A stretch of DNA of 64,000 bases, taken from positions 385,957 through 449,956 of the forward strand of contig CAKQUE010000001.1 of assembly GCA_934277435.1 (NCBI GenBank). The letters are read 5' to 3'. The notes beneath the pieces are model-generated. The model did no database searches, was not told where the DNA came from, and saw nothing but the letters and a program-made list of their open reading frames with translations. Made by a program: the position numbers and the translations under genes. The stretch comes from an uncultured Alphaproteobacteria bacterium. Lineage in GTDB: Bacteria > Pseudomonadota > Alphaproteobacteria > RF32 > CAG-239. Positions 11,313 to 41,764 of the stretch are shown here, one piece after another; position 1 is the stretch's first letter, and every line of letters starts with the position of its first letter.

Positions 11313-13451
11313 CTATTTGTTGGCACGAGAAACATAACTGATTGATTTTGCCGATTTCAAGGCTGTTACCAAGTTATTCAGCTGTTCCACGTTTTTAACT
11401 TCTATATCCAGCAAAATTTCAAAATAGCTCAAAGTACGGTAAGTAATGTTGAGGTTTATAATGTTGGAATTGGCTTTTGCCACAATGTTAGCCACATCGG
11501 CCAGCGCCCCAGGCTCATTGCTAATCATTAATTTCAAACGCGCGGTGTGTTTTTCGTTTTCGGCGTCTGCGCCCCAATCAATATCGAGCCAGCGTTCTGG
11601 TTCTTTTTCATAATTTTTGAGCGACGGACAATCTAAAGTGTGAACAGTCACGCCTTTACCGGTGGTCACAATACCAACAATTCTATCTCCTGGGACAGGG
11701 TGGCAGCAGCCGGCAAAATGCACGGCCATACCGTCAATCAGCCCACGGATTTTTAGGGCGTCTTTTTTCGCCTGTTCTTTTTTGAATACCGGCAGCTTGA
11801 TGGAACTTACCATTTTTTCGAGTTTGGATTGTTTATAGGCCGGATGTACGGCGCGCAACACGTCCCAACCGGTAACCAATCCTTCGCCTACTTTGGCATA
11901 AATATCGTCTACGGTTTCGGCTTCAAAATTAGAAAGAACATTGACCAAACCTTTTTCGGTAAACTCCTGTTCTTCCTGCTTAAACAGCTTTTCTAAAATT
12001 TCCTTGCCCAGTGTAATAAACTGCTCACGTTTATTGATACGGACATAGCGGCGGATTGCGGCTTTAGCCTTGCCAGTCACAACAAATCTGTCCCATTCTA
12101 GAGAAGGGTGTTGATTTTTTGCAGTTAAAACTTCCACTTGGTCGCCGTTTTGCAAAATGGTGCGTAGCGGTTTGATTTCTCCGTTAATTTTGGCGCCAAC
12201 GCAGGTGTCCCCCACATTAGAGTGCACAGCATAAGCAAAGTCAACCGGTGTTGAACCAACAGGCAGACCAATTAAATCGCCTTTTGGGGTAAAACAAAAA
12301 ACTTGGTCGTTGTACATTTCAAGCTTGGTGTTTTCCAAAAATTCATCAGGATTTTGCGCTTGATCCAAAATTTCCAGCAGCTCGCGAATCCAGCGGAAGT
12401 TTTTGCCTTCGGTGCGCTGTCCTTGTTTGTATGCCCAGTGTGCAGCTACACCTTTTTCATTGACTTCGTGCATTTCATATGTACGGATTTGCACTTCAAT
12501 CCGCACATCATAAGGGCCGATTACGCCGGTGTGCAAAGATTGGTAACCGTTTGGTTTTGGCGTAGAAATATAGTCTTTGAAACGGCGCGGCACCATGTGG
12601 TATTTACTATGGATAATGCCTAAAGCCTGATAGCAGTCCGCCACGGTATCAACACAGATGCGAAATGCCATAATATCGGAAAGCTGCTCGAAAGAAGCGT
12701 TTTTCAGCTGCATTTTGCGCCAAATAGAATACGGCGATTTTTCGCGTCCGGTGATGGTGCAGTGCACGCCGTTGTCAGCCATGTCTTTTTCCAGCTGCTT
12801 AATAATTTTCGGCACAATGTCATTGCCTTGCTCACGCAAAAAATTCAAACGGGCGACAATGGAGTCATGCGCGTCTTTATATAGTTCGGCAAAAGCGATT
12901 TCATCCATTTCTTCTTTGACTTCTTGCATACCGATACGTTCTGCCAGCGGGGCGTAAATATCCAAGGTTTCTTTGGCAATGCGGGCACGTTTTTCCGGCG
13001 GGCAAAAGTGCAGCGTGCGCATATTATGCAAACGGTCGGCCAGTTTAATCAGCAGCACGCGGATATCTTCCGACATGGCCAAAAGCAGCTTGCGGAAATT
13101 TTCGGCCTGTTTGCTGGAGCCGGATTTTTGTTCTATCATGGCTAATTTTGTCAGACCGTCAACCAGTTGAGCCACCTGATCGCCAAATAAATTGCGGATT
13201 TCATCAAGTGTGGTGTCGGTATCTTCCACCGTATCATGCAGCAATGCGGCAATAATAGATGCGCTATCAAGTTTGAATTTAGTCAGAATACCGGCGACTT
13301 CTATTGGATGAGAATAGTATGGATCGCCAGAAGTGCGCAGTTGCGAACCATGTTTTTTTAGGGCAAAAACATAGGCGCGGTTTAAAGCGTCCTCATCGGC
13401 GTAAGGATCATAAGATTTTACTAAATCAACAAGTTCATACTGTCTTAACAT
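11313..13451 (-). CDS. spoT: Bifunctional (p)ppGpp synthetase/hydrolase Rel/SpoT
   Basis: HD hydrolase motif (HDTVEDT), RelA/SpoT synthetase domain, TGS and ACT domains. 712 aa. Confidence 0.95.
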   Translation of the reverse strand: MLRQYELVDLVKSYDPYADEDALNRAYVFALKKHGSQLRTSGDPYYSHPIEVAGILTKFKLDSASIIAALLHDTVEDTDTTLDEIRNLFGDQVAQLVDGLTKLAMIEQKSGSSKQAENFRKLLLAMSEDIRVLLIKLADRLHNMRTLHFCPPEKRARIAKETLDIYAPLAERIGMQEVKEEMDEIAFAELYKDAHDSIVARLNFLREQGNDIVPKIIKQLEKDMADNGVHCTITGREKSPYSIWRKMQLKNASFEQLSDIMAFRICVDTVADCYQALGIIHSKYHMVPRRFKDYISTPKPNGYQSLHTGVIGPYDVRIEVQIRTYEMHEVNEKGVAAHWAYKQGQRTEGKNFRWIRELLEILDQAQNPDEFLENTKLEMYNDQVFCFTPKGDLIGLPVGSTPVDFAYAVHSNVGDTCVGAKINGEIKPLRTILQNGDQVEVLTAKNQHPSLEWDRFVVTGKAKAAIRRYVRINKREQFITLGKEILEKLFKQEEQEFTEKGLVNVLSNFEAETVDDIYAKVGEGLVTGWDVLRAVHPAYKQSKLEKMVSSIKLPVFKKEQAKKDALKIRGLIDGMAVHFAGCCHPVPGDRIVGIVTTGKGVTVHTLDCPSLKNYEKEPERWLDIDWGADAENEKHTARLKLMISNEPGALADVANIVAKANSNIINLNITYRTLSYFEILLDIEVKNVEQLNNLVTALKSAKSISYVSRANK

Positions 13452-17304: not shown

Positions 17305-17841
17305 GTGGATATGTTAAAATTTAGACACATGTTATTTGTGTTAGCCTTGGCCGGCTGTACTTCTTCAGAAGTAAAAATGATGCCAGGGATTGTACCGAAC
17401 ACGGCAAAAGAAAAACAAGTGGTGAAAGTTATGCCTAATAATATTATCGGTGAAGTTGAACCAATTTATTTACTGCCGATGAAATCTCCGTTTATGTCAC
17501 GTATTGATACCGGAGCAACTACATCTTCTTTAGATGCCGAAGATATTAAGCCGTTTGAACGTGACGGTCGTAGATGGGTTTCATTTACGGTGGTAAATCG
17601 TGCAACTCAAGAAAAATATACTTTTGAAAAGCCTTTGATTAAAAATGCAAAAATCAAACGAATCGGCGAAAGAGAAAAACGTCCGATGGTAGAAATGGAA
17701 GTGCGTATGGGCAAAGACGTTTTCAGAGCAAACTTTACAATTGCCGAGCGTGAAAAGTTTGAATATCAGACTTTGGTGGGGCGAAATGTGCTTTATGGTC
17801 GTGCCATTGTTGATGTGACATTATCAAACACCCTGAAATAG
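17305..17841 (+). CDS. Retropepsin-like (clan AA) aspartic protease lipoprotein
   Basis: Lipobox LAGC. Catalytic-type motif IDTGATTS. About 178 aa. First gene of the three-gene cassette. Confidence 0.6.
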   Translation: MDMLKFRHMLFVLALAGCTSSEVKMMPGIVPNTAKEKQVVKVMPNNIIGEVEPIYLLPMKSPFMSRIDTGATTSSLDAEDIKPFERDGRRWVSFTVVNRATQEKYTFEKPLIKNAKIKRIGEREKRPMVEMEVRMGKDVFRANFTIAEREKFEYQTLVGRNVLYGRAIVDVTLSNTLK

Positions 17842-17888
17842 GGCAAAAGGCAGAAATTTCTGCCGATTTTTGTTTAAGGATTTGAACT

Positions 17889-19424
17889 ATGCTTAGAAAA
17901 ATTATTTCTGTTCGCGGAATTTTGACCTTGCTGTTGTTATTGTCGGTTGTAGCTGCCGCAGCGGCTACATATTATAAGATTGTTTATTGGGGATTCAGTT
18001 TCCGTCCGCAGGAACGTACAGATGTGTGGACGGTAGATGCTCATGTTTCATTTAAGCCGACAGGTGACCCGATAGAAGTTTCGCTTTCTACACCGCGAAT
18101 CAGCAAAGAATATAAAATTTTGAGCGCCGATGTGGTGGCTCCGGGGTATGAAGTTAATACCGATGAAAAAAATCATCGTGTGATAATGAAGTCTGCCGCT
18201 CGTGTTGTAAAGCAAGATGTTTATTACCGTATTATGATTTATGATAATGAAGATACCAGTGGTAAGGAAGTCAGCGATAGACCTGCTGATGTAAAAATTC
18301 GCTATGATGATGAACAGCAAGAAGAAATGGTGAAAGCCATTTGGACTTTGGCCGAGGCTAAAGATGGCGAAACCAAGGCTCAGCGTTTAATTTCCGTTTT
18401 GAATGAGCAGCCGTTGGCGCCTGAGGTAGATTCATTTTTACCGGTACAGAAAAATCCGCAGATTATGGCGGAAAAAATTATTTTTTTATTGAATGCTAAA
18501 AAAATTCCGGCTCGTGTGGTGCGCGGAGTTAAACTTAGTGAAAATAAAAGAGCCACCGGCGCCGATTTAATGGTTGAAGCCTATGAAGGTTCTAAATGGA
18601 AAATCTATGATATTAATACCGGAAAATCAGGCTTGCCGAAAAGCTTTGTGATTTTTCAACGCGGTGGAAATTCTCTTTTAGACGTTGCCGGCGGCTATGA
18701 TTCCAAAGTTAAGTTTTCGGTTATAAAATCGGTTGTTTCTTCATTTAAAATGGCTGGCAGCCGCGCTAAATATGAAAACAGCCGCTGGTTTGACTTTACG
18801 ATTTATAATTTACCGTCTTTGGAACAGAACACTTTGAAGTGGTTGATGATTTTTCCTTTGGGGATTTTATTGATTGTGCTGATGCGTAACGTTATTGGTA
18901 TTCAAACTATGGGTACGTTTACGCCAATGTTGATTTCTATGTCTTTGGTTAAAACCGGATTTCTCCCAGGGTTGGTGTGTTTTGGGCTGATTATCGGAAT
19001 CGGTTTGTTAATCCGCACCATGCTGACACGCTTGAATTTGTTGCTGGTACCAAGAATTTCATCGGTGGTTATCTGCGTGATTTTAATTATGCAGATGCTG
19101 ACGATTATGGGTTACCAATATAACTTCAGCATTGCTTCTTCAGCCGTGTTTTTCCCGATTATTATTACGGCGTGGATTATTGAACGCGCGTCTATCACTT
19201 GGGAAGAAGAAGGCGTTAAAAACGCAGTTCGTCAGATAGTAAACAGTTTGTTTGTGGCGATTGTAACATATGGTGTTATTAGCAACGAATATATCCGCCA
19301 TATTATGTTTGCTTTCAACGAGTGGAATTTGGTGATTTTGTTTGTGGTAATGCTTTTGGGTACATATACTGGTTATCGTTTAACGGAACTGAAAAGATTC
19401 GCGCCGGTAGCAAGGGGGAAATAA
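17889..19424 (+). CDS. Periplasmic transglutaminase-like domain fused to a 7TM membrane domain
   Basis: Signal/anchor sequence, a soluble region of about 300 aa, then seven predicted hydrophobic helices. Tightly linked to the flanking genes. Confidence 0.6.
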   Translation: MLRKIISVRGILTLLLLLSVVAAAAATYYKIVYWGFSFRPQERTDVWTVDAHVSFKPTGDPIEVSLSTPRISKEYKILSADVVAPGYEVNTDEKNHRVIMKSAARVVKQDVYYRIMIYDNEDTSGKEVSDRPADVKIRYDDEQQEEMVKAIWTLAEAKDGETKAQRLISVLNEQPLAPEVDSFLPVQKNPQIMAEKIIFLLNAKKIPARVVRGVKLSENKRATGADLMVEAYEGSKWKIYDINTGKSGLPKSFVIFQRGGNSLLDVAGGYDSKVKFSVIKSVVSSFKMAGSRAKYENSRWFDFTIYNLPSLEQNTLKWLMIFPLGILLIVLMRNVIGIQTMGTFTPMLISMSLVKTGFLPGLVCFGLIIGIGLLIRTMLTRLNLLLVPRISSVVICVILIMQMLTIMGYQYNFSIASSAVFFPIIITAWIIERASITWEEEGVKNAVRQIVNSLFVAIVTYGVISNEYIRHIMFAFNEWNLVILFVVMLLGTYTGYRLTELKRFAPVARGK

Positions 19425-19425
19425 G

Positions 19426-20376
19426 ATGTTTGATTTTCTCAAAGGTTTTGTATCGCCACAAAAATTGCGTCAAGCGGGCGTGTTGGGTATGAACGCACGC
19501 AACTATAATATTATTGCCAAATTTAACAAGCGTTCGCTTTATCCGCTGGTTGATGACAAGGTGCAGACTAAAAAGCTGGCAAACAGCATTGATATTAATA
19601 CTCCGCATATGATTGGTATTGTAGAACACCAATATGAAGTTAAAGACCTGCTGCAGCTGATTGAGGGACAGAGCGAGTTTGTGATAAAACCGGCTCATGG
19701 CAGTGAGGGTAAAGGTGTGCTGGTGGTGGCGCATTATGAAAACGGTATATTTACCACGCCGTCTGGAAAAGTATTGACCTTTAAAGAAGTGTATCAGCAT
19801 GTTTCAAATATTTTGAGCGGATTATATAGCTTGGGCGGACAATATGACGTGGCGCTGATTGAAGAACTGGTGCATTTTACCGATGTATTTAAAAACTTTA
19901 GTTACCAAGGGATTCCTGACGTACGCCTGATTGTTTATAAAGGCTATCCGGCTTTGGCAATGACCAGACTGGCAACCAAAGAATCTGCCGGCCGTGCTAA
20001 TTTGCACCAAGGAGCTGTCGGAGTCGGTTTGTCTATCAAAACCGGCAAAGCTGTGCAAGCCGTTAGCCACAATCTGCCGATTGCTTTACATCCCGATACC
20101 GGCGCCGATTTAATGCAGCTGCAAGTACCGCTATGGAAAGAACATCTGTTGATTGGAGCACAGGCGTATGAAATGACCGGACTTGGTTACTTGGGGGCGG
20201 ATATCGTTTTAGACCGCGACCGCGGACCGATGATGCTGGAATTAAACGCGCGTCCGGGGCTTTCTGTCCAGATTGCTAACGGTATTGGACTGCAGCCGAT
20301 TTTGCAAAAAATAGAAGAAACTTATCCAAAAGATTTGACGCCGCAAGAAAGAGTTGAGTTTGTCTTGAATAATTAA
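19426..20376 (+). CDS. RimK-related ATP-grasp alpha-L-glutamate-ligase-like protein
   Basis: ATP-grasp motifs (FVIKPAHGSEGKGVLV, LELNARPG). Start 2 nt after the upstream stop. Confidence 0.7.
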   Translation: MFDFLKGFVSPQKLRQAGVLGMNARNYNIIAKFNKRSLYPLVDDKVQTKKLANSIDINTPHMIGIVEHQYEVKDLLQLIEGQSEFVIKPAHGSEGKGVLVVAHYENGIFTTPSGKVLTFKEVYQHVSNILSGLYSLGGQYDVALIEELVHFTDVFKNFSYQGIPDVRLIVYKGYPALAMTRLATKESAGRANLHQGAVGVGLSIKTGKAVQAVSHNLPIALHPDTGADLMQLQVPLWKEHLLIGAQAYEMTGLGYLGADIVLDRDRGPMMLELNARPGLSVQIANGIGLQPILQKIEETYPKDLTPQERVEFVLNN

Positions 20377-31415: not shown

Positions 31416-32189
31416 ATGAGTAGAGTAATTACTTTAATGCCGGTTAGATTAGCCGCAACCAGACTGCCTAACAAACCTTTGCGCGTGATTAATGGTAAAA
31501 CTATGGTACAGCGCGTTTATGAAAATGTAAAAAAAGCATTGAACACCGATATAGCCATTGCTGCCGGTGACCAAGCTATTGTGGACGAATGCACAAAATT
31601 TGGCGCTAAGGCAATTTTAACCGACCCAAATTTGCCAAGTGGCACGGATAGAATTGCCGCCGCTTTGAAAGAGCTTGATCCGGACGGTTCAAAATATGAT
31701 ATTGTTGTTGATTTTCAAGGCGACAATATCAATGTTGACCCTAAAGTTACATTGCCATTGATAGAAATGGTGGAACGTACCGGCTGCGATATTGCCACCT
31801 GCGGTATGCTGATTAAAACCGAAGAAGACAAAAACAATCCTAATGTGGTAAAAATCATTATGGGACTGAAAGAAGGCGAAAAAGAAGCTCGTTGTCTATA
31901 CTTTACCCGTGCGACGGCGCCTTATACTCGCAATCCGGAAAAATGCCCGAATCAAGATTTATATTATCACATCGGTATTTATGTTTTTAAAGCAGCTTCT
32001 TTGCATAAAATGGTTTCACTTCCTACTGGTGTGTTGGAAAAACGTGAGGCCTTAGAGCAACTGCGCGCTCTGGAAAATGGTATGGAAGTTCGCGCTATGT
32101 TGGTTGACAACATTAAACTTGTTCCCGAAGCTCCGGCGGATATAAATACGGAAGAGGATTTGGCGAATGCTCTTCCTTATATAAAATAA
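31416..32189 (+). CDS. kdsB: 3-deoxy-manno-octulosonate cytidylyltransferase (CMP-Kdo synthetase)
   Basis: MPVRLAATRLPNKPL start and typical KdsB length and motifs. Confidence 0.9.
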   Translation: MSRVITLMPVRLAATRLPNKPLRVINGKTMVQRVYENVKKALNTDIAIAAGDQAIVDECTKFGAKAILTDPNLPSGTDRIAAALKELDPDGSKYDIVVDFQGDNINVDPKVTLPLIEMVERTGCDIATCGMLIKTEEDKNNPNVVKIIMGLKEGEKEARCLYFTRATAPYTRNPEKCPNQDLYYHIGIYVFKAASLHKMVSLPTGVLEKREALEQLRALENGMEVRAMLVDNIKLVPEAPADINTEEDLANALPYIK

Positions 32190-32470
32190 TGGAACTCGTC
32201 TAGCTGGTATCTGCTGGGGATTTTTGCGCTCGTGTACTAATCTGTACACGTCGCTTAAAAATTCCGTCGCATCTACGCACGCTATCCGAGTTTCTGAGAG
32301 TTAGTGCCGGTTGCCTTAAAGCAGCCGGTTTTTCTTGTGTACCACTTTGTACACGTCGCAAAAAAGTTAATGCGTATTAGCCTCATTATCCTAGTTTCTG
32401 CAAGCTTGTGCCGGTTGCAGCAATAAGCAGCCGGTTTTCTTATGTACTAGTTTGTACATAGCGATACCAA
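32190..32470. repeat. Array B of the intergenic repeat family (about 2.5 units)
   Basis: Starts with GGAACTCGTCTA immediately after the kdsB stop. Units share TGTAC-N6-TGTACA, GCGCAAAAAAGTTAATGCGTATTAGCCTCATTATCC and the GCCGGTTGC hairpin plus T-run with array A. Confidence 0.85.
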
Positions 32471-32480
32471 TACAGGTTGC

Positions 32481-32520
32481 AACAAAAAAAACAGCCCTTA
32501 ATTAAAGGACTGTTTTTTTG
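32481..32520. terminator. Bidirectional terminator
   Basis: A-run, then the hairpin acagccctt / aaggactgt, then a T-run. Confidence 0.65.
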
Positions 32521-32525
32521 TTAGA

Positions 32526-33023
32526 TTACGCTGGTGCTTCTGCACCTTCGCTTGTTTCAGCAACCGTGGCTGGATTTTTTTCTTCGGCTTTACGCTCGGA
32601 AGAATAAATTCCATAGTCGCGCGCTCCGCTGACAGTCAAAAGAATGCTTAGAGCAGACAAAAGTCCCTCCCATTCTACTGGTCGAACATTAAAGTATGGA
32701 GATACAATAAAATTATTGCTATACCCCAGAACCAAAATCCAGCCAATAGCAGGAATCCAGAACTTGTTACTCAACTCACGACCACCAGCCGTCGCGTTAA
32801 TAGCTTTTTGCAACGGACCTAAATAGCGGAATCTCTGCAACACTATGTCGCGGGCGCCGCCAAGTCCAATCACAATACTAAATGTCAAAATCAACTGATA
32901 CCAGTCGATAATTCGACAATCAAAATACGGAGCCAATGCGCAGTTGTGAAAGAAACCATACGCAATAACCACTCCTAACGCTGGAATCCACATACGGGAT
33001 TTCTTGACTTTAATCTTAATCAT
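32526..33023 (-). CDS. Small membrane protein with internal 2x (2-TM) duplication
   Basis: Repeats WIPALGVV...SPYF...GARD and WIPAIGWI...SPYF...GARD. Downstream of the pilin genes on the same strand. Confidence 0.5.
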   Translation of the reverse strand: MIKIKVKKSRMWIPALGVVIAYGFFHNCALAPYFDCRIIDWYQLILTFSIVIGLGGARDIVLQRFRYLGPLQKAINATAGGRELSNKFWIPAIGWILVLGYSNNFIVSPYFNVRPVEWEGLLSALSILLTVSGARDYGIYSSERKAEEKNPATVAETSEGAEAPA

Positions 33024-33138
33024 ACTAAAAAAAATATAAAGATTAATAATTTTCTTCCTAAGATTTAAAATACGCCATATGGCCTATTTTGTCAAGGGAT
33101 TATTGTTAATTTGTCTATATTTTTTAGCATTTTCTGTT

Positions 33139-33774
33139 CTAAAATGCCCAAATCGCAATGGCGCAAGTGTTGTTTGTACCGCAGTTGCATGCGTTGGCTA
33201 TAGTTGTTATGGGCATATCCTTATTATAGCAAATAGCAAAATCATTGTCTGAAGTTTCGCATTTTGCGGCTGAGGAATATTGGGTATAGCCTGAAATTTT
33301 AGAAGTACTGTTTGGATTGTTTGAACCGGAGGCAACCAAAATAGTTTTGGGACCGCCCAAACCTTTACTCAAAATTTGGATGCAAGCATCGCGGGACAGA
33401 GATTTCAGCTCAACTATAACACCTTTGTCTGTTGGGGTTAAACCATAAAGTTCTTTTGCCGAACCAACTCTAACTTCACCGCCGTAAACGTGAGTAACCT
33501 TGCCGCTGGAGTTAATCATTTCATCTGGAATAATTTTCATTTTTTTTGCAGATGTGTTATTTAAGCCGGTGTATTTACCGCCTTGACGCAACCCGATGCT
33601 TTTGGCGTTGGCAATAATAGTGCCGATTTGTTCAACAATGTTGTTAACCTTGTAGGCGTCCATGGCTTTACTGAAACCATTGATGCCGCCAACGCTCAGC
33701 ACGCCGATAATTGCCAGCACACCCAGCATTTCTATCATTGAACGACCTTGTTCAAATTTATTGATATTCATCAT
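33139..33774 (-). CDS. Type IV pilin (paralog 1)
   Basis: Prepilin leader ...FEQG^RSMIEMLGVLAIIGVLSVGGI with Glu at +5. C-terminal disulfide loop CNCGTNNTC. Confidence 0.8.
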   Translation of the reverse strand: MMNINKFEQGRSMIEMLGVLAIIGVLSVGGINGFSKAMDAYKVNNIVEQIGTIIANAKSIGLRQGGKYTGLNNTSAKKMKIIPDEMINSSGKVTHVYGGEVRVGSAKELYGLTPTDKGVIVELKSLSRDACIQILSKGLGGPKTILVASGSNNPNSTSKISGYTQYSSAAKCETSDNDFAICYNKDMPITTIANACNCGTNNTCAIAIWAF

Positions 33775-33789
33775 TTGCAGAATTCCTTA

Positions 33790-34398
33790 TTAGTTAAATT
33801 TTAAAGCTACAATACAAGAGTTAGAAGATGAGCAGTTGCAGCCTTTTGCTGCGTCAACAGGCGACATTGGGGTTTTCTCTGCCGGTAATATGGCATATTT
33901 TTTAGCAGCATTAATATCTCCAGCACCATCATCAAGTAAATCTGTCTTAAAATTTTGTTTGTCACCAACGCCAATCATTTGGAAAGTAGAACTCTTGGTG
34001 CCCCAATCTTGAGTGGCTAAATAAATACAAGCAACTTTAGGCAGTCCATTATAAGATATTATATATGACATATCTGTAGGTGTAATTTTTATATTTCCGT
34101 GGAATAGATTTGTTAAAGTTCCATTGCTAGCATTGGCAATCGCTTCTTTAGGAATAGCGCCGAATTTGATGGCAGCTTTGTTGTCTAATCCGTCATAAGA
34201 CGCAACTTCGGAACCGACAGCAGAAAGTTTTGCGGCAATAGCGTTGATTTGTTCATAAGTCTGGGTGATTTTATAACGTTCAAGCATTTGCGAAAAGGCG
34301 GCTATGCCCCCCACGCTTAAAACGCCGACAATCGCTAAAACACCAAGCATTTCTATCATAGAACGACCGGTCATATTCGATAATTTATTATAATTCAT
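33790..34398 (-). CDS. Type IV pilin (paralog 2)
   Basis: Same leader, G^RSMIEMLGVLAIVGVLSVGGI. C-terminal CNCSSSNSC. AGGAGG RBS before the ATG at 34398. Confidence 0.8.
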   Translation of the reverse strand: MNYNKLSNMTGRSMIEMLGVLAIVGVLSVGGIAAFSQMLERYKITQTYEQINAIAAKLSAVGSEVASYDGLDNKAAIKFGAIPKEAIANASNGTLTNLFHGNIKITPTDMSYIISYNGLPKVACIYLATQDWGTKSSTFQMIGVGDKQNFKTDLLDDGAGDINAAKKYAILPAEKTPMSPVDAAKGCNCSSSNSCIVALKFN

Positions 34399-34472
34399 AA
34401 TATCCTCCTGTTTGCTATTTTTGTAACACGTATGCAAGCTGGCGTCAAGCTATATTAAGGCGGAGATAAGTA

Positions 34473-35732
34473 TCAAATTTTTGGCAGCGTCACCATAAAT
34501 GTAGAGCCTTTGCCAAATTTGCTGTCCACAGTGATTTTGCCGTTATATTTTTGCACGATGTCTTTAGCCAGAGCCAAGCCCAGACCAAATCCTCCGCTTT
34601 GGCGATTGCGGCTTTTATCGGCGCGGTAAAAACGTTCAAATATATGGGGTATATCCTCATTTTTTATGCCGCGGCCTTGGTCAGAAACCTCAATTTTCAG
34701 ATTATGTTCATTTTCTGAAACCTTGAGGGAAATATCTTTGTCGCTGGGTGTGTATTTTAGCGCGTTGTCAAGCAATATGGTCAGCAAACGTTCCAAATGC
34801 TGTGCCGACATTTTTATTTTTGCTTTTGCGGGGCAAATCACTTTGATTGGATGTTGCCGTTCTTGATGAACCGTATTCAAACGTTCGGTCAAAGGTTTGA
34901 TGATGTTGGCAATATCGATTTCTGAAACCGCGGTGTTTTTAGTGTTTTCCAAACGAGTAAGTGCCAGTAGGTTTTCAATAAGTTCGGACATATTTTTGGT
35001 TTCATCGCGCATAACCTGCAGCGCCTTGGCATTTTGCGGCTGCTGTTGCAATATTTCGGTGTAAGTCAGCAATACGCTGAGAGGAGTTTTTAGCTCGTGT
35101 GAAGCGTCGGAAACAAATTCTTTTTGTTTGTTATAGGCCTCCTGCAAAGGTTTTACGGCGTTGTTAGAAATTAAATAAGCGGTGAGAATCGAGAGCAAGC
35201 ACAAAAGACCAACCAAAATTAAACCATAGCTTTTATAGCGGTGAGTGACATAAATATACGGTGTGACATTGAGCAAAGCAACTACTTGATATTTGTCGCC
35301 GCTGGGTTCATCAATCCAGCTTTGGGACAAGGCTACAAAGCGCCAGCGCTCGCCGTTGTTTTTGATTTTAACTGTTTTGATTTCTCCGTCTTTTCCCTGC
35401 CACTTGGTCATTTTTTGCGTCAGAATATTACCGGTTTCTCCGGCTGGTTGTTCTAAGCGGCGCATTTGTCCGTTTACAAAGCCATACGAGAAAAAATGCA
35501 GGGCGTTATTGCTTGCGGCGACGGCTATTCTTTCCGGCTTGAATGCGAGTTCGGCGGCTTCTTGCTTAAATTCAAAAACTTCTTCTTGCAAATAGTCATA
35601 AAGGCTTGAAGATATTACATTTTTAGAAATAATGCGATAGGTGGCGTATCCGCCCAAAAATATGAGCAAGGACACGCTGAATAATATTAGCGAATAGCGA
35701 ATTAAAAGTTTATGTTTTAAGGCGTCTATCAT
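34473..35732 (-). CDS. Sensor histidine kinase (PmrB/BasS-like)
   Basis: Two TM helices flanking a periplasmic domain. H-box HELKTPL. G-boxes in the HATPase_c domain. Confidence 0.85.
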   Translation of the reverse strand: MIDALKHKLLIRYSLILFSVSLLIFLGGYATYRIISKNVISSSLYDYLQEEVFEFKQEAAELAFKPERIAVAASNNALHFFSYGFVNGQMRRLEQPAGETGNILTQKMTKWQGKDGEIKTVKIKNNGERWRFVALSQSWIDEPSGDKYQVVALLNVTPYIYVTHRYKSYGLILVGLLCLLSILTAYLISNNAVKPLQEAYNKQKEFVSDASHELKTPLSVLLTYTEILQQQPQNAKALQVMRDETKNMSELIENLLALTRLENTKNTAVSEIDIANIIKPLTERLNTVHQERQHPIKVICPAKAKIKMSAQHLERLLTILLDNALKYTPSDKDISLKVSENEHNLKIEVSDQGRGIKNEDIPHIFERFYRADKSRNRQSGGFGLGLALAKDIVQKYNGKITVDSKFGKGSTFMVTLPKI

Positions 35733-36418
35733 TTGAGTTCCAGCATATATCCAATGTTTTTGAGCAGGTTTATTTGGATGTTATCTTGCCAGATTTTAAG
35801 CTTTTTGCGCAAATTGTAAATATAAGAATCCAAATTGGCGCTGCTGATTTCGGGATTATTGCCCCAAACTTTGTCAAAAAGTGTTTCGCGCAAAATAGTC
35901 TTATCATGGTTTACAAAAAGAATCTGCAATATTTTAAATTCGGTTTTAGAAAAATTAAGCGTTTTCTTGCCGTTGCTCAAGGTATTTTGCGCGCAATCCA
36001 AAACATAGCCGTCGGCTTCAAACAAGCTGTCGACATAAGGTTTGTTTTTGCGGCGCAGCACAGCGTGAATACGCGCTTTTAGCTCGCGGATTTCAAAAGG
36101 TTTGGTAATATAATCATCGGCCCCAACTTCCAGAGCCTGCACACAATCATCAAGCTCGGATTTGGCGGTTAAAAATATGATGCCGCCGCTGTAGTGTCCT
36201 TTTTTGATATCTCTAAGCCATTTGCATACTTCCAAACCAGAAAGCTCAGGCAGCATCCAATCCAAAAGCACCACATCATATTGCGAAGTTCCGTATTTAA
36301 TTTCTTCAATAGCTTCGGTTCCGGTTGTTGCCAAATTTACCTCATAACCGTCAATTTCAAGCAGGGTTTTGATGCCTTGTCCTAAATTAATATCGTCTTC
36401 AACCAATAAAATATGCAT
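35729..36418 (-). CDS. OmpR-family response regulator (PmrA/BasR-like)
   Basis: Receiver domain (LLVEDD...D...LDWMLP). Winged-helix C-terminus. Overlaps the kinase start. ATG at 36418 with a GGGAGA RBS. Confidence 0.85.
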   Translation of the reverse strand: MHILLVEDDINLGQGIKTLLEIDGYEVNLATTGTEAIEEIKYGTSQYDVVLLDWMLPELSGLEVCKWLRDIKKGHYSGGIIFLTAKSELDDCVQALEVGADDYITKPFEIRELKARIHAVLRRKNKPYVDSLFEADGYVLDCAQNTLSNGKKTLNFSKTEFKILQILFVNHDKTILRETLFDKVWGNNPEISSANLDSYIYNLRKKLKIWQDNIQINLLKNIGYMLELK

Positions 36419-36466
36419 AAAGTTATCTCCCAAAACATAGTTTATGTTGTTTTTATTAAGAACTCA

Positions 36467-36540
36467 ATCTGAAAGTTATCTGAGAGAATTTAATTTTTAT
36501 CTGAAAAATTTTTTAGATTCTTTCAGATTGTTTTCAGATT
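36467..36540. promoter_or_regulatory. Phased direct repeats ATCTGAAA / TTTCAGAT in the divergent intergenic region
   Basis: ATCTGAAA at 36467 and ATCTGAGA at 36478 are 11 bp apart. A further ATCTGAAA at 36499. TTTCAGAT at 36521 and 36532 are 11 bp apart in the opposite orientation. This is an OmpR/PhoB-type box architecture. Confidence 0.5.
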
Positions 36541-36579
36541 AGCGTTTTAATTTTGCCAATGTACCAACAGGAGGACAAA

Positions 36580-36858
36580 TTGAAGATAAAAAGAATAAGT
36601 ATAAAATCATCAACATTAATTTGCTTGGTTGCCCTATACTTTGCAACGGTTTTAAACTTGTCGTTTTGGTGCTACATAACACATTATATCCAAATTGACA
36701 ATCCGATGATGTTGATGTTTGCTTTTTCCCTTGGCATATTTATATTTGTTCCGCTGTATGCGTTGTTCAATCTTTTGATTTGTCCTCATGTTGGTAAACT
36801 GATGACAATAATATTACTTTTAGGTGGCGGTTGCTGCCAATTATCAAATGTTAGCTGA
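36580..36858 (+). pseudogene. N-terminal fragment of an EptA-like phosphoethanolamine transferase (truncated remnant)
   Basis: The 92-101 aa membrane ORF aligns by eye to the EptA N-terminal TM domain (KRISIKSS..LNLSFW.....ILLLGGGCCQ versus E. coli KRPSLNLL..LNIAFF...FILVGAAAQY). There is no room for the sulfatase domain. AGGAGG precedes a TTG start at 36580. Confidence 0.45.
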
Positions 36859-36893
36859 CGGCATATATAGAGTTGGCAAGGTTATAAAGTAAA

Positions 36894-36966
36894 TCCCCGC
36901 AAAACAACAGAACATATATCTTATTCCTTCTGGATATATGTTTTGTTGGCGGGGACGTTTTTTTTG
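36894..36966. terminator. Long stem-loop with T-run (bidirectional terminator)
   Basis: tccccgcaaaacaacagaacatatatc pairs with gatatatgttttgttggcgggga, then a T-run of 9. Confidence 0.65.
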
Positions 36967-36969
36967 CGT

Positions 36970-38115
36970 CTAGTCTTTGATTTTGCGGCTCATAAACAGC
37001 AAGTACAGCGCGCATAATATCATTACGGCGACAGCTCCGTGCTGGTTGTTGACAAAGTCGGAGGCAATACCCATCAACAGCGGAAATACGGTGCCGCCGA
37101 AAATACCCATAATCATCAAGCCGGAAACCTCATTACCGTGACGCGGCATGGTTTTGAGAGCTTGCGAAAAAACAACCGGAAAAATATTTGCGTTGCCGTA
37201 GCCAATGCAGGCAATGCAAATATACAGCAGTTCTTTACTGTTGAATAAAAAGATGCCGATAAGGGCAAAAAACATCAAAATCACACTGCCTAAAAAATAT
37301 TTATGGTTGGAGTATTTGGCTAAAATATAGGCGCCGCTAAAACTGCCAATGGTGCGGAAAAAGAAATATATGCTAGTGGCATAGCCGGCTTGTTCCAAAG
37401 TCCAGCCCAGTTTTTGCATAAGCAGTTTCGGGGTGGTTACATTAGTGCCAACGTCAAGCCCAACATGGCACATCACCGCCATAAAACAAAGAAAAATTGT
37501 TCCGTTGCCTAAAAGCATGGCACATTCTTTGAAGCCCGAAGTTTTGCCAACTTCCGTTTCTTCTATTTTTTCGCGTGACAATAAAACAAACGCCAAGACA
37601 GTTTCGGCTAAAAAGAACGGAAACAGCACTTGCCATTTGCCAAAGTGAATAGCACCCCAGCCGGCGAGAATCGGTGCTACAAATGAAGCTGTGGCTTTAA
37701 CAAACTGTCCAAAGGTGAGGGCGCTGGACATTTTATCTTTGGCGACAATGTTCGAAACAAGCGGATTTAGTGAAACTTGCATAATGGTGTTGCCAATACC
37801 CAATAAAGAAAATGAAATCATAATGATTATCATATTGTAGTCAAATATCGGCAAAAGCAAAGCCAGCATAGTGATGGCCAAGCTCAGCAGCACGGTTTTA
37901 CGGCGTCCGATTTTGTTCATCAGCAGACCTGTCGGAACTGAAAAAATCAAAAACCAAAAAAATGTCATTGATGTAAACAAGTTTGCCATTGTGTCGGAAA
38001 GGGCAAAATCGACTTTGACATAGTTGGTGGCTATGCCGACAAAGTCGACGGCGCCCATGGCAAAAAAGGCGAACATAATTGGTATCAGTTTTTTGAACAT
38101 ATCCGTTTTAATCAT
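36970..38115 (-). CDS. MFS transporter (sugar/FucP-like)
   Basis: 12 predicted TM helices. MFS motif NKIGRRKTVL. Adjacent to a sugar kinase gene. Confidence 0.8.
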   Translation of the reverse strand: MIKTDMFKKLIPIMFAFFAMGAVDFVGIATNYVKVDFALSDTMANLFTSMTFFWFLIFSVPTGLLMNKIGRRKTVLLSLAITMLALLLPIFDYNMIIIMISFSLLGIGNTIMQVSLNPLVSNIVAKDKMSSALTFGQFVKATASFVAPILAGWGAIHFGKWQVLFPFFLAETVLAFVLLSREKIEETEVGKTSGFKECAMLLGNGTIFLCFMAVMCHVGLDVGTNVTTPKLLMQKLGWTLEQAGYATSIYFFFRTIGSFSGAYILAKYSNHKYFLGSVILMFFALIGIFLFNSKELLYICIACIGYGNANIFPVVFSQALKTMPRHGNEVSGLMIMGIFGGTVFPLLMGIASDFVNNQHGAVAVMILCALYLLFMSRKIKD

Positions 38116-38135
38116 GGCTATTCTCCTATTACAGG

Positions 38136-38993
38136 TTATTCATATTTTGGCCAAGCGCCGCTTTTGGTGCAGACAAACGCCGCAGTGGCAACAGCTTGTT
38201 TGTGGGCTTCGCGCATGGACTTTCCGGTTAGCAAGCCCATAACGAATCCGGCAGAAAAAGAATCGCCGGCGCCAACTGTGTCGGCAACTTTGACTTTGGG
38301 CGTATCCAAATAAGATTTTTCGCCGTTGGCCGCATAAACAATGCTGTATTTTTCTCCGGCAGTAAAAATCAGATAGCGCAAATCGTATTTTTTTATAAAC
38401 CAATGGCAAATGTCTTCATCAGAGAGATTGAGTTCAAATAGTTTTTGCACTTTAACCATTTCTTCGTCATTGATTTTGAAAACGTTGGCTTCTTGCAAAA
38501 GCTCGTCAATCAGTTCTTTGGAAAAATAGTTGCTGCGCAAATTGACATCAAACAACTTAAAGGCTTTTTGCGGTGCGTGTTTTAAAAGAGTCAGAACCGA
38601 AGCTCTGGTTTGCGGCGAGCGCAGCGCCAACGTGCCAAAACAAACGGCGTCGGCTTTTTCCACCACGGCTATTTCTTTTGGTGTGACGGCCAAATGGTCC
38701 CAAGCAACACCCTCAACAATGGTATAAGTCGGAATACCGTTGTTCAGCTCAATTTCAACAACGCTGGTGGGGTAGTCGTTGCGTTCCAGCACATGGTGAA
38801 TGTGGCTTTTTTCCAGTTCAGCAATGATTTCGTCGCCCAAAGCGTCTTTACCAACCGCGCTGATGGCGTAACCGTCGGCGCCGAGCTGAGTGGCGTTATA
38901 AACAAAATTAATCGGCGCTCCGCCGGCACGCTTGCCTTTTGGCAGCATATCCCACAGAAGTTCGCCGATTCCTACAACAACAGGTTTGCTCAT
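38136..38993 (-). CDS. PfkB-family sugar kinase (fructokinase-like)
   Basis: GG motif and DTVGAGDSFSAGF signature. 285 aa. Confidence 0.85.
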   Translation of the reverse strand: MSKPVVVGIGELLWDMLPKGKRAGGAPINFVYNATQLGADGYAISAVGKDALGDEIIAELEKSHIHHVLERNDYPTSVVEIELNNGIPTYTIVEGVAWDHLAVTPKEIAVVEKADAVCFGTLALRSPQTRASVLTLLKHAPQKAFKLFDVNLRSNYFSKELIDELLQEANVFKINDEEMVKVQKLFELNLSDEDICHWFIKKYDLRYLIFTAGEKYSIVYAANGEKSYLDTPKVKVADTVGAGDSFSAGFVMGLLTGKSMREAHKQAVATAAFVCTKSGAWPKYE

Positions 38994-39084
38994 CTTTGCC
39001 TCCTTTGCTAATAATATAGTTTTAATTTAGCATATTTTAAGTAAAAATCCAATAAAAAAAGGCGGAGAAAAACACCGCCAAAAT

Positions 39085-39660
39085 CTAAAACAAGCCGCCG
39101 TCAATGCGCCATGCGCCGTCATAAACCAAATGAAACACCGCGCAATTTTCTATTTTGCCAAAATCAAAGTGCAGATAGTTCAAAAGACTGCCCATTGTGC
39201 CGCCGTGAATAGCTACGCCGATGACGTTATAAGGTGTTTGCCTCAGGTCTTCTATTTGTCGCCAAACTCTTTCGAGCGCGGCTTGTTTGCTTTCGCCGTC
39301 GGGGTAGGCGATGTTCCAAACTTCTGGATTGCTCCAGTTGTTGTAGACATCAGGATATTTTTCGGCGAGTTCTGATTGCAGCATACCTTCGGCGCGGCCA
39401 TAAAAACATTCTTGTAAATCATCTTTGATAATAAGCGGACAATGCAGTGTTTTTGCCACGGTTTGCGCCGTTTGCACCGCTCTTTTAAGCGGGCTGGAAA
39501 AAATGATATCTAAATTGCACTGAGCCAGTTTTTGCGCCAAAGCGATTGCTTGTTCTTGGCCTTTGGCTGTCAATTCCATATCTATGCCGGAACCTTGCTG
39601 CCGGTGTTGCAGGTTAAATTCGGTTTCGCCGTGGCGGAAAATATAAAAATCTTTACGCAT
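39085..39660 (-). CDS. Histidine phosphatase family protein (phosphoglycerate-mutase-like)
   Basis: RHGETEFN catalytic motif. About 191 aa. Confidence 0.85.
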   Translation of the reverse strand: MRKDFYIFRHGETEFNLQHRQQGSGIDMELTAKGQEQAIALAQKLAQCNLDIIFSSPLKRAVQTAQTVAKTLHCPLIIKDDLQECFYGRAEGMLQSELAEKYPDVYNNWSNPEVWNIAYPDGESKQAALERVWRQIEDLRQTPYNVIGVAIHGGTMGSLLNYLHFDFGKIENCAVFHLVYDGAWRIDGGLF

Positions 39661-39663
39661 GGA

Positions 39664-40143
39664 TTAGAGCGCTTTCAAGCCGACTTTGTGCGCCACAATG
39701 CGGAAAACTTTTTCTTCATCTTCCGGAGTTAATATGCCATAAAGCGGCAGACAAAACGGGGTAAAGTCGCCATTGTGTTTTTGTAAAAAGTTGTATTTGT
39801 AATCAATGCCTTTTTTAGGAATAAGCACAATTACACGGCGTTTTTTGCCGCAACAAGTAACCATGCGTTCTTCGGCAATTTCAATATCTTTCCACGCCAC
39901 CGGATTGGTATGGTCAATTTTGATGGTGTCGTCGGTGATAACCGCCATAATTTGTTTGGTGGCGTATTTATAAATCCAAATTAAAAGAGTTGCCGTCAGC
40001 AGCCCAAACAAAACCTGAAACTCCCACCAATAAGCGTAGGATTTGCTGCAGAACAGACAAGAACAAAGTGCCGCCAACACAAGGATATTCAAGACTAACC
40101 AAACATAGTTTTTTTTGAAATGGTAATAAATAATTTCATTCAT
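39664..40143 (-). CDS. Hypothetical membrane protein
   Basis: Two N-terminal TM helices and a soluble C-terminal domain of about 90 aa. Only 3 nt before the phosphatase gene, so likely co-transcribed. Confidence 0.5.
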   Translation of the reverse strand: MNEIIYYHFKKNYVWLVLNILVLAALCSCLFCSKSYAYWWEFQVLFGLLTATLLIWIYKYATKQIMAVITDDTIKIDHTNPVAWKDIEIAEERMVTCCGKKRRVIVLIPKKGIDYKYNFLQKHNGDFTPFCLPLYGILTPEDEEKVFRIVAHKVGLKAL

Positions 40144-40253
40144 AATAGCCGCCTTTCAAATATTTTATCCAAAACAAGTATATATTATTTTGCGCGTGAA
40201 GGTAAAGTAAAAAATGAAGCTGTTTTTCGATAAATTTATTAATTTAAGTATAT

Positions 40254-40284
40254 AAAAAAATACCGTTTTGCAACGGTATTTTTG
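40254..40284. terminator. Terminator downstream of pilin paralog 3
   Basis: ataccgtt-ttgc-aacggtat hairpin with A-run and T-run flanks. Confidence 0.7.
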
Positions 40285-40314
40285 TGAACTAATGTAATTT
40301 TTGCTGTAAGGAAA

Positions 40315-40974
40315 TCAGTAGTATTTCCACAAAATAGAGCATGTGTTACCTTTATCGCAGTTGCATGCTTTAGCAGCTTGAGTAACTTGCATCGGTACAG
40401 CTAATGTTGTATTTCCTGGCATAGCTATAGAATCACCATCTTCTTTTTTTGCTGAGGCAGAGCCAATATAAACTGTATCCAAGCTGTCATCGCGTGCAGT
40501 TGGAGCAGCAGTTGCTGTGGCATTGCCTTTTACTTCGATAGCAATCAAACCAGAAGAATAGCCAGAACCCCAGTCGTTGGTAGCTAAAGTGATGCAAGCT
40601 TCACGTGATAATTGTGTGAATTCAATTACGAATGCTTTTGTGTCGCCATCCACAGTACTGTCAGCTTCATTGATAAATACAGGACCGTTAAACGCATTTG
40701 TCAGAGTTCCGGCAGTGGCATCTGTAACCAATTCGTCTGGTACAACACCCATAGATACAGCATTGGCATTGTCTAAATCTGTATAAGTATTTTGCTGAGC
40801 ATACAAGGTTTTGATGTTGGCAACCAACATAGAAACATTATCAGAAACTTTATTTGTTTTGAATTTGTTCATAGCTTTTGAATAGCCGGCAATACCACCA
40901 ACAGACAATACACCGATGATGGCCAATACACCCAGCATTTCAATCATGGAACGACCAGATTCATTTACTCTCAT
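40315..40974 (-). CDS. Type IV pilin (paralog 3)
   Basis: Leader MRVNESG^RSMIEMLGVLAIIGVLSVGGI. C-terminal CNCDKGNTC. AGGAGA RBS. Confidence 0.8.
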   Translation of the reverse strand: MRVNESGRSMIEMLGVLAIIGVLSVGGIAGYSKAMNKFKTNKVSDNVSMLVANIKTLYAQQNTYTDLDNANAVSMGVVPDELVTDATAGTLTNAFNGPVFINEADSTVDGDTKAFVIEFTQLSREACITLATNDWGSGYSSGLIAIEVKGNATATAAPTARDDSLDTVYIGSASAKKEDGDSIAMPGNTTLAVPMQVTQAAKACNCDKGNTCSILWKYY

Positions 40975-41175
40975 TGTTTTTCTCCTAAAAATTATATGTA
41001 TAAGGGTCTCCTAAACCCGTTGTAGAATTATACTTGAACAAGCCTCCTAAACTTGTTCAATAGCAACATACTGCTTAATTCTTTCAAAATTATTAATATC
41101 ACAAATTTTTGTTTTTCGCAATACGACAAGCGGTATATTACTTTAGTAATAGTTTGCTACTGAGGTGGCTTGATA

Positions 41176-41208
41176 ATAAAAAAAGCCGTCTAAAAAGACG
41201 GCTTTCAA
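41176..41208 (-). terminator. Terminator after tRNA-Arg
   Basis: aaagccgtc-taaaaa-gacggcttt hairpin. Confidence 0.7.
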
Positions 41209-41214
41209 GCTTGT

Positions 41215-41291
41215 TGGCGCGCTCCGGGCGATTCGAACGCCCGACCCACAGCTTAGAAGGCTGTTGCTCTATCCTGCTGAGCTAGGAGCGC
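41215..41291 (-). tRNA. tRNA-Arg (anticodon TCT)
   Basis: Cloverleaf folded by hand. Acceptor GCGCUCC/GGAGCGC. Anticodon loop CUUCUAA. T-loop UUCGAAU. Encoded CCA. Confidence 0.9.
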
Positions 41292-41434
41292 AATAACATA
41301 CGATGCATCATAAGTCGCACAAAAAATGTTAGTTGTCAATAAATAAAATAAATTATTTTTTTATTTTTTGTGTTGCATTTTAGACAAATTTGAGTTATGG
41401 TCAAAAAGATTTCGAATTTTTAATTTAATTATTT

Positions 41435-41764
41435 ATGGCAGAAAATTTAGTCAACTGTTTTGTTAACTTCTCCGAGGGTGTTAATGGTTTCTCTTCTGAG
41501 GAACGTTCTGAGATTTCTAAGGCCTTCCGCAAAGATCTGAAGGCTTACAAAGTCAGCGGCGCAATCATGAAAATTGTCGAAAGCGCCAGCAACAAGGTTC
41601 CTGTGTACATCAATGTGATGTGTCAGCAATGCCGAAAGAAAAAATTTGTCACAGAGTTCGAAGAGGAATGTTCTCGCCTTCGTCGCCTTTATGCGCGCAC
41701 TCGCCCAGAGGTGGCCTTGAAAATACGACATCTCCATGATGTCGTGATTGACAGCTTGAAGTAA
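41435..41764 (+). CDS. Hypothetical protein
   Basis: 109-aa ORF between tRNA-Arg and rpmJ, followed by a strong terminator. No recognised family. Confidence 0.4.
   Translation: MAENLVNCFVNFSEGVNGFSSEERSEISKAFRKDLKAYKVSGAIMKIVESASNKVPVYINVMCQQCRKKKFVTEFEEECSRLRRLYARTRPEVALKIRHLHDVVIDSLK

Follow-up and report, generated by a model that had tools for sequence, protein, structure and literature searches.

Three genes of an uncultured gut alphaproteobacterium encode type IVb-class pilins of a greatly expanded family that may provide a repertoire for one pilus machine

A 64,000-nucleotide stretch of the genome of an uncultured alphaproteobacterium (GTDB lineage RF32, CAG-239; contig CAKQUE010000001.1, positions 385,957 to 449,956; from here on the window) carries three genes, referred to as A, B, and C, whose products are related to the major subunits of type IVb pili. 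We propose, with a probability of about 0.7, that these are functional genes for type IVb-class pilus subunits, that they belong to a lineage-specific and greatly expanded gene family of gut and rumen Alphaproteobacteria, and that the family serves as a repertoire of subunits for one assembly machine. An earlier reading of the window made from the DNA letters (the original prediction) had described the three proteins as type IV pilins with constant ends and variable cores, and had likened them to an arrangement for antigenic variation or lectin diversity.

A scan for open reading frames (ORFs) confirmed all three genes, each on the minus strand. Gene B (33790..34398) is the first gene of a B-A tandem and encodes a 202-aa prepilin with an 11-aa leader and a mature part of 191 aa containing four Cys residues. 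Its start is best placed at the ATG at 34398, which is preceded by a strong AGGAGG ribosome-binding site; a TTG codon at 34437 is a less likely start. Gene A (33139..33774) begins 15 nt past the stop codon of B, has its own ribosome-binding site, and encodes a 211-aa prepilin (10-aa leader, 201-aa mature part, six Cys). Gene C (40315..40974) represents the best-conserved type of paralog; it encodes a 219-aa prepilin (7-aa leader, 212-aa mature part, four Cys) whose tail ends in WKYY. The N-termini read MMNINKFEQG↓RSMIEMLGVLAIIGVLSVGGI for A, MNYNKLSNMTG↓RSMIEMLGVLAIVGVLSVGGI for B, and MRVNESG↓RSMIEMLGVLAIIGVLSVGGI for C, where the arrow marks the predicted cleavage site, and they share the motif G↓RSMIEMLGVLAI(I/V)GVLSVGGI with Gly-1, Arg+1, and Glu+5. 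Type IV prepilins are recognized by a short hydrophilic leader of 6-26 aa that ends in Gly (PMC4471445). The leaders of A, B, and C, with their 10, 11, and 7 residues, are all hydrophilic and have a final Gly, and each is followed by about 21 mostly hydrophobic residues that Glu at position +5 interrupts (RSMIEMLGVLAIIGVLSVGGI in A and C), as is typical of class III signal peptides. A six-frame scan of the window found the leader motif in A, B, and C only. The near-identical prepilin leader with Gly-1 and Glu+5 that had been described for the three genes is therefore real.

Pairwise identity among A, B, and C is 38% overall and drops to 29-30% past residue 30, which bears out the description of constant ends and divergent cores. 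At the C-terminus (...ACNCGTNNTC, ...GCNCSSSNSC, and ...ACNCDKGNTC), all three proteins possess a CNC-x5-C motif followed by six to seven residues; in the six-frame scan of the window, the CNC..C motif was matched by A, B, C, and one non-coding frame. The conserved motif that the original prediction had seen there holds for these three proteins but not in its details for their relatives. Asn varies in orthologues, in which CxC takes the form CAC, CSC, or CGC, and the CxC..C end is not family-wide, since the last 25 residues contain it in 42 of 135 family proteins and a single Cys in 62 of them.

Pfam searches placed all three proteins close to major pilins of the type IVb class. PilS_N (PF08805) was matched by A (E = 8.7e-14), B (E = 1.1e-12), and C (E = 6.4e-16) with 48.6-59.1 bits against a cutoff of 22, and Bundlin (PF05307) by B (E = 4.8e-6; 27.3 bits) and C (E = 3.9e-11; 43.9 bits) against a cutoff of 22.3. 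A profile built from C, its homologues, A, and B recovered bundlin (1zwt; E = 5.7e-11), PilS, and TcpA from the PDB, with 1q5f and 8uhf as further entries matched, and in these alignments Cys127 of C coincides with the D-region Cys of the three known pilins. The fold was modeled for C alone. Its AlphaFold model (pLDDT 82.7, pTM 0.78) predicts a long N-terminal helix and a beta-sheet whose final strand (model residues 212-218) is made by the residues behind the last Cys; what had been called a short hydrophobic tail is thus present, but it appears to form the terminal beta-strand of the fold. With Foldseek, the 16 best PDB hits to this model were without exception major pilins of the type IVb class (CofA, TcpA, PilS), with a probability of 1.00 for 15 of them and 0.98 for the nuclear magnetic resonance entry of PilS, a best E-value of 2.6e-6, and TM-scores, normalized to target length, of 0.47-0.66; no type IVa pilin gave a significant Foldseek match to the model. 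Four Cys residues (C127, C204, C206, and C212) are invariant among the orthologues of C, and the number of Cys residues is even in 128 of 135 family proteins. The prepilins, at 202-219 aa, have about the size given for the type IVb class (about 180-200 aa), whereas their leaders of 7-11 aa are shorter than the classical 15-30 aa and resemble those of type IVa prepilins, although length criteria of this kind are no longer considered valid (PMC4471445). Since both homology and predicted fold point to the same class, we regard it as confirmed that A, B, and C are homologues of type IVb major pilins. The assignment as type IV pilins in the original prediction can accordingly be refined to the type IVb class.

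The family to which the three proteins belong is large. A word-indexed protein search gave at least 7,968 matches, some of which are named 'type 4 pilus major pilin' and derive from metagenome-assembled genomes (MAGs) of Pseudomonadota. When the representatives of clusters formed at 50% identity were searched exhaustively, at least 7,447 of the clusters matched with E <= 1e-3, and 4,322 with E <= 1e-10. Sampling one genome per GTDB species, we counted at least 532 confirmed family loci, and their hosts are nearly all MAGs of uncultured Alphaproteobacteria from human, mouse, and ruminant guts or rumen. Eighty reference-genome loci, together with the window and a sibling contig, contain 141 leader-bearing pilin ORFs. 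The number of distinct paralogs in a single genome is at least 39 in JAFUSA01, at least 11 in CAKQLP01, and at least nine each in CAKQLF01 and JAGBLF01. Since there are dozens of copies per genome, a repertoire of diverse pilins is more plausible than it had been from three genes. We found neither an earlier description of the leader motif or of pilins from gut Alphaproteobacteria of the RF32/CAG-239 type nor a publication on this pilin expansion in the literature; a large gene family with scattered copies, an identical assembly helix, and differing exposed surfaces is apparently undescribed. Family members may escape routine annotation, since NCBI calls a protein in the 90%-identity cluster of B a 'hypothetical protein'.

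Some records of the family require comment. Eight loci (L002, L003, L007, L020, L021, L025, L030, and L043) come from MAGs titled '[Ruminococcus] gnavus', 'Bacteroidaceae bacterium', or 'Eubacteriales bacterium'; as these MAGs carry family pilins and syntenic housekeeping genes, their titles are probably those of mislabeled bins. Many gene calls (among them P0261, P0269, P0271, P0275, P0291, P0335, and P0375, and calls in L012, L017, L029, and L038) have 100-130 extra N-terminal residues. These read as translated intergenic repeats (...LDPRVRLSVTPEYDN... and ...VKPENDxK...) joined to a conserved basic pre-leader (...TRARKFLVDGVQCG↓RSM), and P0271 and P0275 contain the leader-encoding segment in two tandem copies. 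We rejected new domains as an explanation for the extra residues because of this resemblance to translated intergenic repeats; the extensions look like gene-calling artifacts or, in some subfamilies, like longer leaders of the type IVb style.

Conservation within the family was assessed in 33 genomes, which contributed 135 unique proteins. It reaches at least 90% in residues 1-28 of the mature protein, and Arg+1 is present in 135 of 135 proteins, while the head domains have a median identity of about 38%. The orthologues of C that the word-indexed search recovered are 64-100% identical. In an alignment of C orthologues, alpha1 shows an identity of 100%/96%, the core one of 87%, the alpha-beta loop one of 54%, and the D-region one of 46%, and insertions and deletions are concentrated in the latter two regions. 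By this measure, C orthologues vary mostly in the parts that are exposed on type IV filaments. In relatives of the window's host, the pilins are 68-72% (C), 48-50% (B), and 40-49% (A) identical to those of the window, compared with 90-98% for the neighboring major facilitator superfamily (MFS) protein, response regulator, and EttA; by this measure, the pilins evolve much faster than the genes that surround them. The B-then-A tandem is kept in three related loci (L002, L003, and L006).

How this diversity is generated can be addressed at the DNA level. Constant 5' and 3' ends around variable cores, as found here, would also be produced by programmed antigenic variation in which the constant ends serve as recombination tracts, either by gene conversion of an expression locus from donor copies, as in Neisseria pilE/pilS, or through site-specific inversion, as in the R64 shufflon. 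The position of pilin genes at synteny breakpoints between the window and L006, L025, and L043, and a few truncated copies in relatives (L040, L054, and L072), could be read in the same way. The DNA of the window speaks another language. The segments for the constant leader and the N-terminal half of the alpha1 helix (alpha1-N), which form the minus-strand direct-repeat family D1 (33683..33754 in A, 34304-34375 in B, and 40892-40963 in C), are identical at only 53-54 of 72 nt between pairs (about 75-76%) and at 9-12 of 24 third codon positions, so that about half of the latter differ; the DNA of the C-terminal motif is 76% identical between A and C, and the regions upstream of the three genes are unrelated. 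Since synonymous positions have diverged, the constant ends are better explained by selection at the protein level than by gene conversion. Each of the three is a complete gene that has a start codon and a leader of its own, and a search of the window with 134 pilin head domains matched only these three, so that it revealed no silent or leaderless head cassette. No shufflon-like (sfx-like) inverted repeats were present in 32000-41600, and no recombinase was found among the window's ORFs of at least 120 aa, essentially all of which were scanned against Pfam.

The known systems of programmed variation differ accordingly. Like Neisseria pilE/pilS, the family is a repertoire of many pilin genes in which some segments are conserved and others vary. 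Donor copies in Neisseria lack promoters and leaders, and tracts of shared DNA mediate their recombination, whereas those of the window are complete, have constant regions that differ at synonymous sites, and are accompanied by no silent cassette. The PilV shufflon of R64/IncI plasmids, in which alternative C-terminal pilin segments change binding specificity, belongs to the same pilus class; there, a single minor pilin has its C-terminal exons exchanged by means of sfx repeats and the Rci recombinase, whereas variation here lies between whole genes and our scans revealed neither such repeats nor such an enzyme. For this window, programmed recombinational variation is largely refuted, and we consider it very improbable as an explanation of the family's diversity. 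The likeness to antigenic variation drawn in the original prediction, if understood as recombination of cassettes, is consequently unsupported, while its idea of a diversity arrangement survives in the form of a repertoire of many complete genes.

Several findings weigh against this repertoire interpretation. The generic class III models respond poorly: Pfam N_methyl reached only 12.2-15.5 bits with A, B, and C against a cutoff of 21.2, and TIGR02532 (cutoff 16.3) was passed by A (16.4 bits) and missed by B (12.1 bits) and C (12.7 bits). Scores at or below threshold are probably a consequence of Arg+1 and Met+3. Arg at position +1 is in itself unusual, and processing of the prepilins at G↓R is an assumption. 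A scan for sigma-70 promoters gave no more sites than a scan of shuffled sequence. Instead of being polymerized as major subunits, some paralogs may be minor pilins, tip pilins, or proteins anchored in the membrane. Finally, as had been observed before for the surroundings of the three genes, assembly genes are missing: Pfam and motif scans of the 64 kb detected no T2SSE, T2SSF, secretin, or Peptidase_A24 domain, and Pfam detected no gsp or Tad genes among the ORFs scanned.

A similar picture emerged from the relatives, where 77 of 81 reference-genome loci are free of assembly genes and four (L061, L052, L075, and L010) contain them. Locus L061, from the MAG CASFMW01 of an uncultured proteobacterium, holds a complete type IVb operon (1483-12348) that encodes a TcpQ-like protein, a secretin, PilO (PAP_PilO), a 479-aa protein of no known family, a T2SSE ATPase, a T2SSF platform protein, a 207-aa protein likewise without assignment, two pilins with the GRSMIE motif, and a 321-aa PilT-like ATPase. 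Among the reference-genome loci examined, it is the only one with family pilins beside the machinery. In L052 and L075, A24 prepilin peptidases lie 3-7 kb from family pilins, and L010, from the MAG CAKQLF01 with an MFS protein that is 90% identical to that of the window, carries a PilT-like ATPase. This ATPase is widespread in the clade, usually alone and again with family pilins nearby. NCBI names its 317-318-aa versions P0122, P0125, P0129, and P0143 'Flp pilus assembly complex ATPase component TadA', a name that is probably misleading, since the homologue in L061 closes a type IVb operon and not a Tad operon. When 1,370 ORFs of the loci were clustered, no accessory family recurred beside the pilins, and the largest non-pilin cluster had five members. 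Taken together, the four loci with machinery, the operon in L061, and the lack of a recurrent accessory family indicate that, as a rule derived from these gene neighborhoods, relatives carry a single machine at some genomic site, and many of their pilins are orphans.

These data also bear on the reservation made in the original prediction that the three proteins could be pseudopilins of a type II secretion system (T2SS), to which we add those of competence systems. Pseudopilins carry class III signal peptides as well, and NCBIfam models for PpdD-like proteins and XpsH gave faint matches, which at 13-18 bits (E = 0.003-0.06) remain far below the cutoffs of 138-160. The pseudopilin families GspG-K gave no significant match to A, B, or C. 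The mature size of about 190-212 aa, the Pfam and fold matches specific to type IVb pilins, and the presence of dozens of copies per genome, which is unlike any T2SS, all speak for pilus subunits, and the L061 operon with its TcpQ, PilO, and PilT-like proteins resembles those for the toxin-coregulated and R64 pili and lacks the GspC/L/M arrangement specific to a T2SS. We therefore give this alternative almost no credence.

Our preferred interpretation can be put as follows. Each prepilin would insert into the inner membrane via its class III signal peptide, and a single A24 prepilin peptidase would cut after Gly-1 to leave Arg+1 as the new N-terminus. Because the first 28 or so mature residues, which would form the helix in the filament core, are the same in all family members, any paralog could be polymerized by a single type IVb machine whose genes lie elsewhere in the genome. 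Besides the assembly ATPase and a second, PilT-like ATPase, this machine would comprise a platform protein, PilO, a secretin, and a TcpQ-like protein. Because the alpha-beta loop and the Cys-bounded D-region are the parts in which pilin heads vary most, the cell could build pili, mixed ones included, that expose different surfaces. The likely purpose would be to offer alternative adhesion specificities and/or to escape from host antibody or phage. Diversity would stem from separately transcribed complete genes that form a standing repertoire. In this scheme, four steps are ones that we infer: cleavage of the prepilins at G↓R, their joint assembly by a single machine, an adhesive or antigenic function, and differential expression.

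The closest functional precedent comes from the archaeon Haloferax volcanii, in a functional analogy that implies no homology. Its pilins PilA1-6 have a near-identical hydrophobic domain and are encoded by genes that are neither linked to nor co-regulated with those for pilus biosynthesis; each of them can be the major pilin, one PilB/PilC machine and one peptidase serve them all, and their heads adhere differently (PMC4371748). The family described here likewise combines a near-identical hydrophobic N-terminus with loci that mostly lack the machinery. The Haloferax system comprises six copies, whereas the bacterial family, with its putative function, runs to dozens of copies.

The main rival of a repertoire of equivalent subunits is a division of labor, in which C-type proteins would be the only true major subunits and A, B, and most other paralogs would be low-abundance minor or tip pilins. 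Entering the filament by means of the common N-terminus, these would display adhesive heads at its tip, as TcpB, CofB, and the PilV variants of R64 do. In favor of this view, C is much better conserved across species (68-72%, with many orthologue clusters) than A and B (40-50%), and C-type genes are present in at least two copies in L006 and L010. Type IVb minor pilins with N-termini resembling that of the major pilin exist. The known ones are, however, much larger, whereas A and B match C in size and domain content without any extra C-terminal domain and also match Pfam families of major pilins. We consider such a division of labor unlikely, though still the first alternative to be kept in mind.

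A further group of observations concerns pilin heads outside of canonical prepilins. Homologues of the head domain that lack the G↓RSMIE leader, have an ordinary-looking N-terminal transmembrane (TM) helix, and end in CxC..C...LKFY are encoded at L018:4812-5447, L066:838-1470, L009:2481-3194, L040:4810-5517, L042:5457-6116, and L047:3093-3812; those in L018 and L066 lie directly downstream of a canonical family pilin. These proteins may be non-polymerizing, membrane-anchored derivatives. P0279 (841 aa) and P0346 (869 aa) carry a C-type head without leader (with the end ...CNCEGQDTCSITWKYF) as a C-terminal fusion to a membrane-anchored protein of about 640 aa, in which MORN/YwqK-like repeats were recognized by eye alone. 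The fusions suggest that the head can act as an independent module.

Both kinds of proteins would agree with the idea that many family members are not filamentous at all and that they are anchored in the membrane or displayed on the surface, borrowing the class III signal and its peptidase in the manner of the Sulfolobus bindosome. In another form of this proposal, unassembled pilins would mediate adhesion from the membrane, and adhesion by membrane-associated pilins has indeed been noted for Haloferax (PMC4371748). Mere anchoring does not explain why the whole alpha1-N helix including Glu+5 is strictly conserved, which is a signature of filament packing, nor why variation is concentrated in those regions that are exposed on type IV filaments; moreover, family members are linked to a full pilus machine in L061. 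We judge a non-filamentous role of many members to be distinctly less probable than a division of labor.

Polymerizable subunits of a repertoire, as we prefer to see A, B, and C, can be compared with the characterized type IVb pilins. In Pfam matches and predicted fold, they resemble PilS of Salmonella Typhi and plasmid R64, bundlin (BfpA) of enteropathogenic Escherichia coli, TcpA of Vibrio cholerae, and CofA of enterotoxigenic E. coli. They also share with type IVb major pilins their mature size and the variable alpha-beta loop and D-region, with bundlin and PilS the central Cys at the position of the D-region disulfide, and with type IVb systems in general the linkage, in one relative, to an operon for TcpQ, secretin, PilO, ATPase, and platform protein. 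Identity to the known type IVb major pilins is only 15-20%, and the invariant Arg+1 and the additional Cys pair in the CxC-x5-C cluster set the new family apart from them. Type IVb systems possess one major pilin gene inside the operon instead of dozens of dispersed paralogs per genome, and their hosts are enteric Gammaproteobacteria or the plasmids of these bacteria, in contrast to the commensal Alphaproteobacteria considered here.

The window otherwise contains housekeeping genes of an alphaproteobacterium-like kind, as seen by Pfam: recR, dnaX, relA/spoT, rpoZ, mraZ, rsmH, ftsI, pal, ybgF, and tilS, as well as kdsB, lpxK, kdtA, nuo-like subunits, birA, and genes for RNase J and an EttA-like ABC-F protein. 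Downstream of A, on the same strand, lies a gene (32526..33023) for a 165-aa membrane protein with four predicted TM segments. Its internal duplication, noted in the original prediction as a 2x2-TM arrangement, proved genuine, with two halves that are 37% identical over 52 aa (E = 3e-15), but a functional partnership with the pilins is unsupported. The protein has weak, sub-threshold holin-like matches and no Pfam domain, and its family comprises 40 clusters. Homologues stand beside pilins in L006, L009, L025, and L065, loci that had been chosen because they contain pilins, and adjacency held in five of five pilin-centered loci. In a sample of four distant homologues taken without regard to pilins, however, three lack a neighboring pilin, and a pilin tandem lies 2.6 kb from the fourth. 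For this reason, we rejected the protein as an accessory factor and do not count it as a part of the pilin system. A palindromic hairpin between A and T runs (inverted repeat I9, 32481..32522) directly follows the stop codon of its gene and is probably a bidirectional terminator that closes the transcription unit. Between kdsB and this end of the pilin cluster (32229-32440), an element is present in two tandem copies about 105 nt apart that are 80-84% identical; it contains a palindrome with TGTACA and a terminator-like hairpin (GCCGGTTGC...GCAGCCGGTTTT).

Directly upstream of B, on the minus strand, are genes for a histidine kinase (34473-35732; HisKA/HATPase_c) and an OmpR-type response regulator (35729-36433; Response_reg/Trans_reg_C). 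This two-component system is a possible regulator of the pilins. As a dedicated regulator, it was rejected: the adjacency is lost in L006, where the system does not flank the B-A tandem, and in L025, where it stands beside a different pilin, and no such family recurs beside pilins in the ORF clustering. Upstream of C, a gene for tRNA-Arg(TCT) (41215-41291, minus strand; detected with ARAGORN and Rfam) and a strong terminator hairpin (41181-41206, minus strand; terminator scan) follow directly, so that C must have its own promoter within 40975-41180. Downstream of C, a minus-strand gene (39664..40143) encodes a 159-aa membrane protein without a significant Pfam or PHROG match; tblastn located homologues in L006, L043, and L041, each beside a different family pilin.

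Compared with their conserved neighbors, the pilin genes change position and orientation between close relatives (the window against L006, L025, and L043). In L006, C, a second C-type gene (C'), B, A, and the gene for the 165-aa protein are contiguous and are followed by an inverted block that extends from the MFS gene to the gene for the 159-aa protein, and then by another pilin gene. In L025, a C-type pilin gene is located on the other side of ettA, and the genes for the response regulator and the histidine kinase abut an inverted gene for the 165-aa protein and a different pilin gene.

Three further regions of the window stand apart from the pilins. The segment 8032-10765 has the lowest GC content of the window (0.35) and encodes two proteins of 379 and 455 aa without a Pfam match, the first of which ends in a charged ERTERTAERTERTAERT repeat. 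A 181-aa protein (61219-61764) combines an extremely Cys-rich stretch (CCCNKNCDCGCQEGKECTCGCGCGCGCGCCCKKK) with a TM segment and a His-rich C-terminus and looks like a metal-binding protein. At 17305-20376, a putative ATP-dependent Zn protease, a fusion with a 7TM and an inactive transglutaminase domain, and a sugar-transfer-associated ATP-grasp enzyme are encoded.

Type IVb pili are mostly known as colonization factors of enteric pathogens and as conjugation pili. In the poorly understood, uncultured lineage of gut commensals studied here, pilins homologous to those of type IVb systems are a dominant gene family, with at least 39 copies in one MAG. We suggest tentatively, and with less conviction than for the interpretation given at the outset, that this is perhaps the largest bacterial pilin repertoire, in which dozens of separately transcribed genes for type IVb major pilins with an invariant helix and an unprecedented Arg+1 would depend on one machine, and the choice or mixing of paralogs would re-surface the pilus for adhesion or for evasion of IgA or phage. 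If the paralogs are interchangeable, the family would offer a simple model of how one pilus machine can give many surface specificities, and such pilus variation from a standing repertoire would need no DNA rearrangement. The combination of an invariant 28-residue helix with highly divergent heads may serve as a natural blueprint for engineered display on pili. If our interpretation is correct, adhesion or immune evasion would be a major selective pressure on these bacteria.

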